From contig CAXXHG010000046.1 in the NCBI GenBank assembly GCA_963666315.2, positions 107,803 to 171,802 on the forward strand: DNA of 64,000 nt, in the 5' to 3' direction. How positions within the stretch are numbered: position 1 is the stretch's first letter; each line of letters begins with the position of its first letter. Shown in pieces: positions 44,266 to 46,659 of this stretch. Under the pieces are notes generated by a model. The model was not told where the DNA came from. It was given only the letters and a program-made list of their open reading frames with translations, and did not search any database. The DNA comes from Candidatus Binatia bacterium. Lineage in GTDB: Bacteria > Desulfobacterota > Binatia > Bin18. Made by a program: the position numbers and the translations under genes.

Positions 44266-44310
44266 ATGCTGAATCGTCCAAACAACCAGAATTGGTGGTG
44301 GCTACCTTAG
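44266..44310 (+). CDS. trpL: trp leader peptide (MLNRPNNQNWWWLP)
   Basis: 14 codons with three consecutive TGG, followed by an intrinsic terminator and then trpE(G). Confidence 0.75.
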   Translation: MLNRPNNQNWWWLP

Positions 44311-44346
44311 GAGGTGGCCCGGACGTAGTGTAACGACTCTACACGG

Positions 44347-44382
44347 AGCCGCCTGAGATATGAGGCGGCTTTTCGTTTTTTT
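44347..44382 (+). terminator. rho-independent terminator (trp attenuator)
   Basis: AGCCGCCT-GAGATATG-AGGCGGCT perfect 8-bp stem followed by TTTCGTTTTTTT. Confidence 0.8.
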
Positions 44383-44451
44383 GGACCGCCACCTCATCAA
44401 AGGTTGCGGTCTTTTTCATATAGGCCCGGCTCCAGAACAACGGAGGATAGT

Positions 44452-46659
44452 GTGGCCAATATTTCGTCCCGACTGCAAAACATCGATCATTATCACACCC
44501 GAGGCGGCGTGACCGTCCACCGAGTGGTCGACGACCTACCGGTGGCAGACACCATCGAGCCTGTCTTAGATGCACTCGACAGCCAGCGCGGCGTCCTGTT
44601 TACCTCAAGCTACGAATATCCCGGTCGGTATACACGCTGGGATATGGGCTTTATCAACCCACCCTTGGCCGCGGTCTGTCGTGGTCTGGACTTTCGGGTG
44701 TCAGCTTTAAATGAGCGTGGGGCGCTGCTCTTGCCGATGATCACGGCAGTCGTCCAACATCTCCCCGCAGTTGCCTCGTTTGAAATCCAGGGCCAGGACC
44801 TCAGCGGCACCATCAAACCGACGGCGGAGCGCTTTCCCGAGGAGCAGCGCAGCAAGCAACCGTCCATCTTCTCGTTGCTCCGCGCCTTGATTGAACTCTT
44901 CTATAGCACCGCCGAGCCGCATCTCGGTCTGTATGGCGCATTCGGCTACGATCTGGCCTTTCAGTTTGAACCCTTAAAATTACGTCTCGAACGTCCGGCT
45001 GACCAACGCGACTTGGTGCTATATTTGCCGGATGAATTGATTGTCATCGACCATAGGCGCGAGTGGGCTATGCGCCGACGGTATGAGTTTGAGGTGGACG
45101 GACACTCGACGCATGGCATGCCACGCACAGGCGAAAGTCAGCCGTATACCGGTCAGGGAAAAGTAAAACAAAGCTGTGACCATGAACCAGGAGAATACGC
45201 CAAACGCGTCGCGGCTGCCAAAGAAGCGTTTAGATGCGGCGACCTCTTTGAAGTCGTCCCTGGACAAACCTTCTTCGAGCCGTGCCAAGCTTCTCCGGCC
45301 GAGCTGTTCCGGCGTTTGCGTGAACGTAACCCTTCCCCGTATGGTTTTTTGATCAACCTGGGACAAGACGAATACCTGGTTGGAGCCTCGCCCGAAATGT
45401 ACGTGCGGGTAGAAGGCAACCGGGTTGAAACATGTCCGATCGCCGGCACAGTCGCTCGTGGCAAGGATGCACTTACAGACGCAGACCAGATCCTGGAGCT
45501 GCTCACCTCAAAGAAAGAGGAGTCGGAACTGACCATGTGTACCGACGTGGACCGTAACGATAAATCTCGCATCTGCAAGCCGGGCAGCGTGCGCGTCATA
45601 GGCCGACGCCAGATCGAGATGTACTCGCGGCTCATCCACACGGTTGATCATGTTGAGGGCTATCTGCGAGAAGAGTTTGACGCCCTGGATGCCTTTTTAG
45701 CTCATACCTGGGCGGTGACGGTCACTGGCGCGCCCAAAGCCTGGGCCATGCAGTTTATTGAGGATCATGAGAAATCGCCCCGCGCCTGGTATGGCGGCGC
45801 AGTCGGCCTGATCCGGTTTAACGGCAGCCTCAACACCGGTCTCACCTTACGCACGATTCGCCTCAAAGGCGGCGTCGCCCAAGTGCGGGCTGGTGCTACC
45901 CTCCTGTACGACTCTGACCCCGAGGCCGAAGAGAAAGAGACGCATATCAAAGCCTCTGCATTTCTCGACGCCATCCGACGCCCACGTGGGTTTACTCCGG
46001 AAAAAGGGATGCCTTTCCCACTAACTGGCCAAGGCAAGAGAATTCTCCTCATCGACCATCAAGACTCGTTTGTGCATACCCTGGCTAACTATTTTCGTCA
46101 GACCGGGGCTGAGGTTACCACTTTGCGCGCCGGTTTTCCACAAGACGCACTCGACGCGCAACGACCTGACCTTGTGGTGCTCTCTCCTGGTCCCGGCGAG
46201 CCAAAAGACTTCCAAGTTTCTGAGACCTTAACCGCTGTGTTGCAGCGCAACCTGCCGGTTTTCGGCGTGTGCTTGGGTCTGCAAGGCATTGTGGAACACT
46301 TCGGCGGGCAGCTGTCCGTCCTGCCCTACCCTATGCATGGCAAGTCCTCGTTGATTCACGTGCTAGAGATACAGATTGGTGAAATTGATGGACGGATTTT
46401 TGACAACCTACCTCGCGAATTTCGTGCCGCACGCTATCATTCCCTGTTTGCCGTACAGGAAACACTACCGACCGTGCTGCGCGTCACCGCAGCAAGTGAA
46501 GATGGCGTAGTCATGGCCGTTGAGCATTCAGATCTGCCCATAGCCGCTGTGCAGTTTCACCCGGAGTCTATTTTGACGCTTCAGGAGGATCTTGGCTTAC
46601 GTCTTATCCATAATGTAGTGGCTGTGCTGACTGCGCCGCGTAAGGCACAGGCAGCATAA
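44452..46659 (+). CDS. trpE(G): fused anthranilate synthase TrpE(G) (component I + glutamine amidotransferase)
   Basis: LDSQRGVLFTSSYEYPGRYTRWDMGF.. N-terminus as in rhizobial-type TrpE(G); chorismate-binding core; C-terminal GATase (PVFGVCLGLQ, FHPES); GTG 44452 follows GGAGGA (the ORF track starts at TTG 44404). Confidence 0.85.
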   Translation: MANISSRLQNIDHYHTRGGVTVHRVVDDLPVADTIEPVLDALDSQRGVLFTSSYEYPGRYTRWDMGFINPPLAAVCRGLDFRVSALNERGALLLPMITAVVQHLPAVASFEIQGQDLSGTIKPTAERFPEEQRSKQPSIFSLLRALIELFYSTAEPHLGLYGAFGYDLAFQFEPLKLRLERPADQRDLVLYLPDELIVIDHRREWAMRRRYEFEVDGHSTHGMPRTGESQPYTGQGKVKQSCDHEPGEYAKRVAAAKEAFRCGDLFEVVPGQTFFEPCQASPAELFRRLRERNPSPYGFLINLGQDEYLVGASPEMYVRVEGNRVETCPIAGTVARGKDALTDADQILELLTSKKEESELTMCTDVDRNDKSRICKPGSVRVIGRRQIEMYSRLIHTVDHVEGYLREEFDALDAFLAHTWAVTVTGAPKAWAMQFIEDHEKSPRAWYGGAVGLIRFNGSLNTGLTLRTIRLKGGVAQVRAGATLLYDSDPEAEEKETHIKASAFLDAIRRPRGFTPEKGMPFPLTGQGKRILLIDHQDSFVHTLANYFRQTGAEVTTLRAGFPQDALDAQRPDLVVLSPGPGEPKDFQVSETLTAVLQRNLPVFGVCLGLQGIVEHFGGQLSVLPYPMHGKSSLIHVLEIQIGEIDGRIFDNLPREFRAARYHSLFAVQETLPTVLRVTAASEDGVVMAVEHSDLPIAAVQFHPESILTLQEDLGLRLIHNVVAVLTAPRKAQAA

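Follow-up and report, generated by a model that had tools for sequence, protein, structure and literature searches.

Does the short interval upstream of trpE(G), a fused anthranilate synthase gene of Candidatus Binatia bacterium, carry a tryptophan-responsive attenuator? A preliminary description of the 64,000-nucleotide stretch of DNA analyzed here (the window) had likened this interval to the rhizobial trpL leader. Our analysis supports that reading with all elements present and conserved, and indicates that the leader is very probably a ribosome-mediated transcription attenuator of the trpL type acting on solitary trpE(G). An ORF with Trp codons adjoins a trp gene, an intrinsic terminator lies between the two, a mutually exclusive helix (2:3) competes with the terminator, and a further hairpin (1:2) has its 5' arm at the Trp codons (Table 1). 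The likeness to the rhizobial attenuator holds for the layout and not for the host, which belongs to Binatia.

Table 1. Features of the trpE(G) leader region, in positions of the window.
Feature	Position	Strand	Basis
Putative sigma-70-type promoter (TTGCTT 44229-34, 17-nt spacer, TATATG 44252-57)	44229..44257	+	sequence and genus alignment
Leader ORF trpL (MLNRPNNQNWWWLP, TAG stop)	44266..44310	+	sequence; ORF conserved in the genus
Predicted hairpin 1:2	44300..44319	+	folds; 93.8% paired in 32 Binatia sequences
Predicted antiterminator 2:3, 7 + 3 bp = 10 bp (44312-21 with 44344-54)	44312..44354	+	folds
Predicted terminator T1 (3:4), 10-bp stem (44345-54 with 44363-72), 8-nt loop, tail UCGUUUUUUU	44345..44382	+	terminator scan
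Predicted second hairpin T2 (5:6) with UUUU run (44413-16)	44383..44416	+	folds, covariation
Translation start region of trpE(G): candidate anti-SD CUCC (44430-33) paired with GGAG of the SD; GTG 44452-54	44430..44454	+	folds
trpE(G), fused anthranilate synthase, 735 aa, the putative regulated gene	44452..46659	+	TIGR01815, NF010081

The product of trpE(G) scored 1139.9 bits on TIGR01815 (TrpE-clade3; cut-off 739.15), with residues 14-735 covered, and 1166 bits on NF010081, confirming the earlier assignment of a fused anthranilate synthase from 44452. Its GATase part also matched TIGR00566, and a single chain carries both the TrpE and the TrpG domain. No other anthranilate synthase match occurs in the genome, which is 92% complete, and the gene is solitary, trpDCFBA-accD being located elsewhere. 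The host genome is a MAG of an uncultured organism. The in-frame GTG is preceded by a GGAGGA SD at 44442-47; the arrangement described before as GGAGGA-N5-GTG stands for both SD and start codon, with the trivial correction that the spacer is 4 nt from GGAGGA and 5 nt from GGAGG. The GTG start is common to three close relatives (L002, L003, and L019); other members of the genus start 12 nt downstream, at an ATG whose counterpart in the window is ATT.

The leader ORF begins with ATG at 44266-68, contains 14 sense codons, and ends at 44308-10; the three consecutive Trp codons TGGTGGTGG (44293-44301) are codons 10-12, all as first described. The preliminary description had let its reading hang on whether orthologous upstream regions carry such an ORF, and they do: a leader ending in NWWWLP lies upstream of the orthologous gene in 22/25 loci of the same genus, with synonymous and length variation 5' of the invariant NWWWLP, and with an N-terminal NRPN motif and RNWWWLP kept at the peptide level. 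Because the -10 box of the putative promoter ends 8 nt from the leader ATG, with no SD in the interval, the ORF is probably translated from a leaderless, or almost leaderless, mRNA. The genus alignment contains a conserved TTG..N16-17..TATAAT box at the same position, 9-10 nt upstream of the leader ATG. A consensus promoter scan of the window did not call the 44229-57 element, because the -10 box there ends in G; compared with the TATAAT of the relatives, TATATG is the weaker box, which counts against the promoter assignment. We infer both the promoter and the leaderless start from these sequence features. In S. meliloti, the rnTrpL transcript begins at the leader ATG (PMC7298713).

Folding of the leader yielded both of the mutually exclusive arrangements that the preliminary description had called for, 1:2 with 3:4 and 2:3, with 2:3 energetically competitive with the terminator. 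Segment 1, GGCUACCU (44300-07), starts inside the third Trp codon and pairs with segment 2, AGGUGGCC (44312-19), across a UAGG loop that includes the stop codon; compensatory changes occur across phyla in 5/8 pairs of this hairpin. In the antiterminator (-22.4 kcal/mol), AGGUGGC (44312-18) pairs with GCCGCCU (44348-54) and CCG (44319-21) with CGG (44344-46), leaving A44347 bulged. An antiterminator formed through AGGAGGTGGC (44309-18) had been proposed before, and this pairing does compete with the terminator; the helix found here is longer. The antiterminator was kept in the minimum free energy (MFE) fold when segment 1 was masked (-25.8), and T1 became dominant when segments 1 and 2 were both masked (-23.3). 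Among 32 Binatia sequences the antiterminator is 97.9% paired, with one-sided (wobble) changes only. It encloses a local hairpin at 44325-42, which was ruled out as a conserved SL2-like element because it is just 41.5% paired in relatives.

The terminator had been described as an 8-bp stem of AGCCGCCT (44347-54) and AGGCGGCT (44363-70) with a tail, TTTCGTTTTTTT (44371-82); these coordinates agree with the sequence, and the terminator scan lengthens the stem to 10 pairs (44345-44372). T1 is 99.3% paired within Binatia and 98.6% across phyla, where 8/10 pairs show compensatory changes, and its tail has at least five U in 8 nt in 31/32 Binatia loci. Judged by sequence, T1 is a canonical intrinsic terminator in the window and in those 31 loci, with a GC-rich 10-bp stem and a U-rich tail; the U tract in the window is broken up (UUUUCGUUUUUUU). 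The whole-leader fold had a z-score of -3.3 versus shuffles. Alternative global folds differ by about 3 kcal/mol at most, so thermodynamics alone cannot choose between them, and discrimination on this basis was dropped.

These elements suggest the following sequence of events. Transcription would start at the leader ATG or immediately upstream of it. With charged tRNA-Trp plentiful, the ribosome would pass the Trp codons and arrive at the TAG at 44308, where its footprint, about 15 nt past the P site and thus to about 44320, would cover segment 2; segments 3 and 4 would then form T1, and RNA polymerase would halt in the U run at 44373-82, releasing a terminated leader RNA about 110 nt long. 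With tRNA-Trp scarce, the ribosome would stall on 44293-44301 and mask segment 1, so that segment 2 (44312-21) would stay free to pair with segment 3 (44344-54); T1 would be unable to form because segment 2 holds segment 3, and the polymerase would go on into trpE(G). If there were no translation at all, 1:2 and 3:4 would form and transcription would terminate. The footprint geometry appears consistent with the classical attenuation model, with one point against it: a ribosome stalled such that its A site holds the third Trp codon would extend to about 44311, the edge of segment 2. The response of the leader to Trp is itself inferred.

To examine the distribution of this leader, a covariance model (R1) was built from Binatia leader seeds. 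The TIGR01815 gene was present in 20/151 sampled Binatia genomes, and R1 matched just upstream of the fused gene, once per genome, in 19 of these 20; there was no match in the 131 Binatia genomes lacking the gene, and R1 found neither another copy nor a related site anywhere else in the Binatia genomes searched. Full-length leaders directly upstream of trpE(G) were also found in Methylomirabilota, Dormibacterota, Acidobacteriota, Myxococcota, and Alphaproteobacteria (E 1e-10 to 1e-3), and a leader ORF with three consecutive Trp codons precedes trpE(G) in about 45/72 loci from other phyla. The cross-phylum leader alignment, which leans towards the model structure because it was fitted to it, is 95.4% paired with compensatory changes in 13/18 pairs; 0/500 shuffles reached the observed pairing, and slid controls were 38-58% paired. 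Because there is almost no variation within Binatia in the arms of T1 and of the antiterminator, covariation for these two helices comes from this alignment only.

TrpE(G), whose phylogenetic position the preliminary description had left to be determined, groups with enzymes of soil and groundwater phyla in a separate clade and is only 57-64% identical to the alphaproteobacterial enzymes. From these sequence comparisons, trpE(G) and its leader appear to move jointly between phyla. Leaderless trpL, a relay of helices (see below), and fused trpE(G) would make up a self-contained cassette that would have spread as a unit across at least six phyla; such spread would be easy because no host-specific regulator is needed.

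Behind T1 lies the second hairpin, T2 (-17.0 kcal/mol), in which GGACCGC (44383-89) pairs with GCGGUCU (44406-12) and ACCU (44391-94) with AGGU (44401-04). T2 is 95.4% paired in the 32 Binatia sequences, with four compensatory pairs, and its tail has at least five U in 8 nt in 24/32 loci. The perfect complementarity that had been noticed for GCCACCTC (44388-95) was borne out; this element is the 5' arm of T2, which adds a feature to the earlier reading. As segment 5 (GCCACCUC, 44388-95), it is perfectly complementary to segment 2 (44311-18), and complementary save for one C.A mismatch, at 44366/44391, to segment 4 (44362-69). The 4:5 pairing is 96.9% paired in the 32 Binatia sequences and is predicted by RNAalifold once segment 3 is left out, and a segment-5 copy occurs 7-17 nt 3' of T1 across phyla. 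Segment 5 would be a copy of segment 3, and the decision taken at the Trp codons would be passed along alternative helices to two terminators in series. Segment 4, freed on read-through, would pair with segment 5 and so block T2 as well, giving an off chain of 1:2/3:4/5:6 and an on chain of 2:3/4:5. Because the 5' arm of T2 has the 3' arm of T1 as an alternative partner, a single stalled ribosome could, in this model, disarm both terminators. That 4:5 also prevents T2 is a tentative proposal, to which we would give somewhat less than an even chance.

A different account of T2, which rivals only this extension and which we put at just under an even chance, would place the hairpin outside attenuator control, as a constitutive back-up terminator, a stabilizing hairpin, or a tandem copy of T1 that has since diverged, in which case duplication by itself would automatically make its 5' arm complementary to segment 4. 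The T2 arms (GCCGCC...AGGUUGCGGC) are indeed similar to those of T1, and the U run after T2 is absent in L022, L023, and L045 and weak in L004, L021, L042, and L043. With segment 1 masked, the MFE structure of the window's leader contains the antiterminator together with T2 (-42.8), the 4:5 form being 3 kcal/mol worse (-39.6) because 4:5 carries the C.A mismatch there; against this, 4:5 is the MFE structure in L003, L004, and L005, it forms ahead of segment 6 transcription (-13.7 to -20 kcal/mol), and RNAalifold recovers it unaided. Duplication also fits less well with a segment-5 copy that tracks the local segment 4 sequence, 7-17 nt after T1, in most phyla, that lies in another register in Roseibium (AAGGCCGCC), and that reaches p <= 0.05 versus shuffles in 19/35 loci and in 8/12 additional leader loci. 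A terminator firing in every state would, moreover, cut expression in both states with no regulation gained. Returning to the relay, the occurrence of the segment-5 element in hosts ranging from Binatia to Roseibium would make the relay principle a general and so far undescribed property of the trpE(G) attenuator family; to the combined proposal of a multi-stage relay, a cassette spread between at least six phyla, and this generality we give somewhat less than an even chance.

The main product of the leader could instead act in trans, as a terminated leader RNA serving as an sRNA, as the 14-aa peptide, or as both, with cis attenuation secondary. This alternative, compatible with an attenuator, we regard as unlikely. 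In S. meliloti, rnTrpL (on trpDC) and peTrpL both have trans functions (PMC6614838, PMC7298713), and in the Binatia genome the other trp genes form a separate operon that would need co-regulation. The genus-wide conservation of NRPN and RNWWWLP would suit a functional peptide; on the other side, the residues after the Trp codons are set by the RNA pairing of segment 1, and R1 detects the leader nowhere else in the genomes, nor any related site. In an RNAduplex screen of the leader against the trpD, trpC, trpF, trpB, and trpA starts and 3000 random genomic windows, a crude and, in our judgment, uninformative comparison of long duplexes with no accessibility term in which full-length spurious duplexes dominate, the trpD start was unenriched (quantile 0.78) and trpF fell at quantile 0.025.

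Purely translational control, in which the CUCC:GGAG hairpin gates the trpE(G) ribosome-binding site and T1 and T2 are not terminators, seems very improbable. The anti-SD box CCGGCUCC is conserved 8-12 nt upstream of the SD; the alignment contains a consensus anti-SD:SD hairpin, with covarying extensions in some loci (L022 and L045), and Roseibium and several Methylomirabilota are without a clean U tract after T1. Against this account stand the canonical form of T1 described above and an anti-SD hairpin of just 4 bp, and no supported pairing ties that hairpin to the attenuator state. One such tie, a further relay step 7:8 between AUAUAGGCC and GGCCAAUAU near the start codon, was rejected: the changes in L010, L015, and L021 are non-compensatory, and RNAalifold did not predict it. 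Segment 3 (GGAGCC) was likewise ruled out as an anti-anti-SD for CCGGCUCC, because it is paired in both states.

A chance small ORF beside an ordinary terminator and hairpins, to which the merely mild enrichment of TGGTGGTGG by itself in the 64-kb window (3 observed vs 0.43 expected; weak evidence against chance) leaves some room, is effectively refuted, with a negligible probability in our estimation, by what is the decisive evidence, sequence conservation: the ORF, the helices, and their covariation are conserved across the genus and several phyla and co-occur strictly with the gene.

Collectively, these observations extend a textbook mechanism to Binatia, a phylum with no cultured members; the mechanism itself has been studied by experiment in rhizobia and enterics. 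What is new is the phylum carrying the known mechanism and the second terminator-like hairpin behind the first. The presence of the leader in 19/20 gene-carrying and 0/131 gene-lacking Binatia genomes would therefore make it a clean case of a portable, regulator-free control cassette. R1 could seed an RNA family broader than RcsR1, and the relay via T2, if true, would illustrate a way of linking leader-peptide attenuators in series for tighter control. Binatia combined with leader-peptide attenuation did not appear among the top results of our literature search.

Among Rfam families, the sole match of the window leader was RcsR1 (RF02552), at 23.3 bits over model positions 1-96, with an E-value of 0.031 in a 1-kb search that would lose significance in a larger one; RF00513 (Trp_leader) gave no match at E <= 10 in 43800-44800. 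The Rfam comparison suggested by the preliminary description thus succeeded in that the RcsR1 alignment is full-length and colinear, with UGGUGGUGG, the two codons, the stop, and the terminator arms aligning, and fell short in its score, 23.3 against a gathering threshold of 60 bits, and in RF00513. The leader has three stem-loops in the order of RcsR1, with the Trp codons in the 5' arm of SL1, upstream of trpE(G). As a control, the RcsR1 model was run on the Bartonella, Roseibium, Pseudovibrio, and Rhodospirillaceae leaders and matched none at E <= 1; because it misses these alphaproteobacterial leaders, we judge the family to be narrow. Rfam was set aside as a membership test, the match being below threshold and the model too narrow to inform. 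This narrowness is also why Rfam overlooked the small leader, which gene callers overlooked as well. R1, by comparison, finds alphaproteobacterial leaders, with 38.6 bits for L109, 29 bits for L090 and L105, and 26 bits for L088.

Leaders with Trp codons are known more widely. In actinobacteria (Streptomyces), a trpL leader ORF with Trp codons lies upstream of a fused anthranilate synthase gene; at L085, the sole Actinomycetes MAG locus in our comparison set, a leader with three consecutive Trp codons was absent. Homologues of the S. meliloti trpL attenuator are known in Agrobacterium and Bradyrhizobium. The E. coli trpL leader (RF00513) has 14 codons with tandem Trp codons near the end, four segments forming either 1:2/3:4 or 2:3, and an intrinsic terminator (PMC7298713). 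The attenuation logic of this gammaproteobacterial leader is the same, whereas its two Trp codons contrast with three in the Binatia leader, and it regulates a whole operon in contrast to a single fused gene.

The closest parallel is RcsR1, or rnTrpL, the trpE(G) attenuator RNA of S. meliloti (PMC6614838), whose peptide peTrpL has 14 codons with the three Trp codons at 10-12 (PMC7298713). The Sinorhizobium peptide given in the preliminary description was correct, and it is equal in length to the Binatia leader peptide with Trp at the same codons. The two leaders also share the two codons and stop that follow, a solitary fused trpE(G) located apart from the remaining trp genes, the hairpin order SL1 (1:2), antiterminator (2:3), and terminator (3:4), the GCCGCC/GGCGGC cores, and, probably, a leaderless start. 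For a second hairpin like T2 in rhizobia, no description was found in a search that did not cover Bae and Crawford 1990 or Merino et al. 2008. The two systems differ in that the Binatia host belongs to another phylum, that trans functions are described for the RNA and peptide of S. meliloti and would be hypothetical in Binatia, and that the Binatia leader has T2 with a U run after T1.

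A predicted ribosome-mediated tryptophan attenuator, very probably real and conserved, precedes the fused anthranilate synthase gene trpE(G). Positions 44200-44470 of the window contained, exactly as in the preliminary description, the ATG/TGG/TAG leader, the stem and its tail, the GGAGGA and the GTG start. The identity claimed for the downstream gene was borne out as well, the ORF scoring 1140 bits against TIGR01815 (TrpE-clade3; cut-off 739) and 1166 bits against NF010081. A terminator scan lengthened the stem of terminator T1 (segments 3:4) to ten pairs (44345-72), and the fold of the leader region (211 nt) beat 200 of 200 shuffles (z = -3.3). 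Folding also yielded the mutually exclusive structures anticipated earlier: with segment 1 masked, the antiterminator 2:3 was the minimum-energy fold (-25.8) even with the whole of T1 available, and with segments 1 and 2 masked, T1 formed (-23.3). A bacterial ribosome is established to cover roughly 15 nt of mRNA downstream from its P site. By this geometry, a ribosome awaiting Trp-tRNA at any TGG would reach at most ~44311, leaving segment 2 free for antitermination, and one on the TAG stop would reach ~44320, masking segment 2 and favoring termination.

Features of the trpE(G) leader region (window coordinates)
Feature	Position	Strand	Details
Leader ORF (trpL)	ATG 44266, stop TAG 44308-10	+	fourteen codons, MLNRPNNQNWWWLP
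Three TGG codons of leader ORF	44293-44301	+	within sequence 44200-44470
Segment 1	44300-07	+	GGCUACCU; starts within third Trp codon; pairs with segment 2
Segment 2	44312-19	+	AGGUGGCC; partner of segment 1
Antiterminator 2:3	44312-21 with 44344-54		segment 2 + CCG with CGG-A-GCCGCCU; ten pairs, -22.4 kcal/mol
T1 stem	44347-54 with 44363-70	+	AGCCGCCT/AGGCGGCT, then tail TTTCGTTTTTTT
T2 hairpin (5:6)	44383-44412	+	-17 kcal/mol; UUUU next
Segment 5	44388-95	+	GCCACCTC; 5' arm of T2
Ribosome-binding sequence (SD) of trpE(G)	44442-47	+	GGAGGA; in-frame GTG at 44452
trpE(G), fused anthranilate synthase	44452-46659	+	TIGR01815 + NF010081

The putative promoter, TTGCTT-N17-TATATG, ends 8 nt 5' of the leader ATG; relatives have TATAAT in place of TATATG, and no SD is present before the ATG. 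Together these features suggest that the leader mRNA may be leaderless, as reported for the S. meliloti leader mRNA (PMC7298713). Just 5' of the promoter, on the minus strand (43917-44117) and divergent from the leader, lies a 66-aa ORF fragment weakly matching the C-terminal part of a PseH-like GNAT acetyltransferase (E 2.6e-5).

The nonamer TGGTGGTGG occurs in three copies in the window versus 0.43 expected, only a mild enrichment, and it is conservation that places the leader beyond chance. The fused gene was present in 24/24 sampled same-genus genomes, and a leader ending ...NWWWLP, 14 to 26 codons long, in 22 of 25 same-genus upstream regions, with synonymous changes in the N-terminal part; one locus (L010) had WRW instead of WWW. 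Within Binatia, helices 1:2, 2:3 and 3:4 were 94%, 98% and 99% paired, their arms nearly invariant, as expected because each arm must match two partners. In the two most divergent genus loci (L024 and L025, from genomes G010 and G003), the attenuator has decayed: ~200 nt 5' of trpE(G), the leader ORF has lost its Trp run (MNTSLSRHTTMHDGKWRLHALRRLGH with one Trp, or no Trp), and the T1 stem is retained with its U tail absent (GGCGGCTGGGTTCC). In one genus subclade (loci L005-L018, L021 and L039), the stop homologous to 44308-44310 has changed from TAG to GAG, AAG or CAG, making the ORF six codons longer (..WWWLPEEVART) and the peptide 25-26 instead of 14-20 aa, with the new stop in the spacer 5' of segment 3. 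A ribosome terminating on this extended leader would sit squarely over segment 2. Since outgroup Binatia share the short leader form, the leader layout in the window is the ancestral one.

Helices 1:2 and 3:4 of 23 Binatia leaders served to build a covariance model (R1), and searching 151 Binatia genomes with it gave exactly one match per genome in 19 genomes, 60-260 nt 5' of trpE(G). TIGR01815 was found in 20 of the 151 genomes (family f1, 17/18; family f10, 2/17) and was absent from all genomes of 17 other Binatia families sampled. The leader was thus present in 19/20 gene carriers versus 0/131 non-carriers; one f10 genome, G106, has the gene without an R1 match at E <= 0.001. Separate trpE and trpG genes (~44% identity) were found in the other Binatia families checked (16-genome sample).

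Beyond Binatia, fused enzymes 57-75% identical were found in Methylomirabilota/Rokubacteria, Dormibacterota, Acidobacteriota, Chloroflexota, Myxococcota and Alphaproteobacteria, in MAGs and isolates. Of 72 such loci, ~45 had a WWW (sometimes WW or WWWW) small ORF 100-270 nt 5' of the gene; it was absent in Sorangium, other Polyangiales, Legionellaceae and some Binatia. Full-length R1 matches included another Binatia family (47 bits), Methylomirabilota (44.5), Thermodesulfobacteriota (43), a Rickettsiales MAG (38.6), Dormibacterota (32.5), Rhodospirillaceae (29) and Roseibium (21). In a cross-phylum alignment of 35 sequences, which was fitted to the model and is therefore biased toward the structure, helices 1:2 and 3:4 were 95.4% paired with 13 of 18 pairs compensatory, by a large margin: 0/500 shuffles reached the observed values, and partners slid by 1-3 columns were 38-58% paired. 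As to the phylogenetic position of TrpE(G), a point raised by the preliminary description, a quick maximum-likelihood tree placed the enzyme encoded in the window within a Binatia clade that is itself nested among phyla of soil and groundwater, apart from a separate alphaproteobacterial clade, with leaders on both sides. Read most simply, the leader dates back as far as the fused-gene lineage and moves along with the gene; lateral acquisition of trpE(G) within Binatia fits the patchy gene distribution inside the class. Four loci with public titles reading 'uncultured Enterobacteriaceae bacterium' (L031, L032, L043 and L099; CAZXFE01, CAZBUD01, CAZUFQ01 and CAZAYE01) appear mislabeled, because in trpE(G) and leader they share 73-93% identity with the Binatia genus; the label of a 'Nitrosotalea sp.' MAG contig (L051) with a Rokubacteria-like cassette is likewise suspect.

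The role of T2 is less certain. T2 was 95% paired with four compensatory pairs in 32 Binatia sequences, and at least five U occurred in the next 8 nt at 24/32 loci. Its 5' arm is the very stretch whose complementarity to segment 2 had been noted earlier; this segment 5 complements segment 4 as well, with one C.A mismatch in the window and perfectly in most relatives (96.9% paired overall). Helix 4:5 was predicted by RNAalifold once the alignment began at segment 4, and it could form (-13.7 to -20 kcal/mol) before segment 6 exists. Segment-5 copies tracking the local segment 4 sequence follow T1 by 7-17 nt in most phyla (for example GCCGCCUC, GCCGCCCC and GCCGCCCG, and AAGGCCGCC in Roseibium), with p <= 0.05 versus shuffles at 19/35 loci and 8/12 further leader loci. 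T2 conservation, 4:5 complementarity and the copies across phyla suggest a relay, with 1:2/3:4/5:6 as the off state and 2:3/4:5 as the on state, in which 4:5 would disarm T2. We regard this relay as tentative, its chances somewhat short of even, because the competing global folds in the window are 3 kcal/mol apart and the lowest keeps T2 intact. That fold would suit T2 as a constitutive back-up terminator or a duplication remnant, which we consider about as probable as the relay; the widespread segment-5 copies speak against it, as does 4:5 being the minimum-energy fold in loci L003, L004 and L005.

At the trpE(G) start, CUCC (44430-33), within an anti-SD box CCGGCTCC (44426-44433) shared by Binatia and Methylomirabilota loci, weakly pairs with GGAG of the SD (44442-45). 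Across phyla this box (CCGGCUCC) is kept 8-12 nt 5' of the SD, and covarying bases lengthen the pairing in L022 (CUCCCC:GGGGAG) and L045 (CUCCC:GGGAG); no connection of this pairing to the attenuator state was established. Eight genus genomes (L004-L007, L009, L011, L014 and L039) carry a palindromic insert of ~55 nt (AAAGAGTAAACG...CGTTCACTCTTT) between box and SD, corresponding to window ~44436, and in five of them the SD ACGGAGGA is changed to ACACAGGA.

The attenuator, in a Candidatus Binatia genome, is of a known type, in a phylum for which the literature searched gave no description. The E. coli Trp_leader model of Rfam had no match in the region. The sole Rfam match was RcsR1 (RF02552), full-length and colinear, yet at 23.3 bits below the gathering score of 60, so that by the criterion of Rfam the leader is not a member. 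This says little, since RF02552 covers only a narrow rhizobial group: it also misses Bartonella, Roseibium and Pseudovibrio leaders, and at E <= 1 it did not match the evident alphaproteobacterial WWW leaders of L092, L097, L098, L101, L102, L105, L108 and L109. In Roseibium leaders the T1-like hairpin lacks a clean U tract. Gene organisation is rhizobia-like, with trpE(G) alone and the remaining trp genes on another contig (L115, G000 contig C10:116500-128500; 2862-7979, minus strand), where orf212-trpD-trpC-trpF-trpB-trpA-accD lies immediately 3' of rpsD-rpoA-rplQ. For the 212-aa ORF NCBIfam gave no match; the cluster showed no Trp leader, and R1 did not match at any further place in this genome. 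Among known systems, the nearest is the trpL attenuator that precedes trpE(G) in S. meliloti; its terminated RNA is the 110-nt sRNA rnTrpL (RcsR1) with SL1/SL2/SL3 (PMC6614838). The proposed likeness holds at the peptide level, the S. meliloti leader peptide (14 residues; PMC7298713) and that of the window being of equal length with WWW at the equal position.
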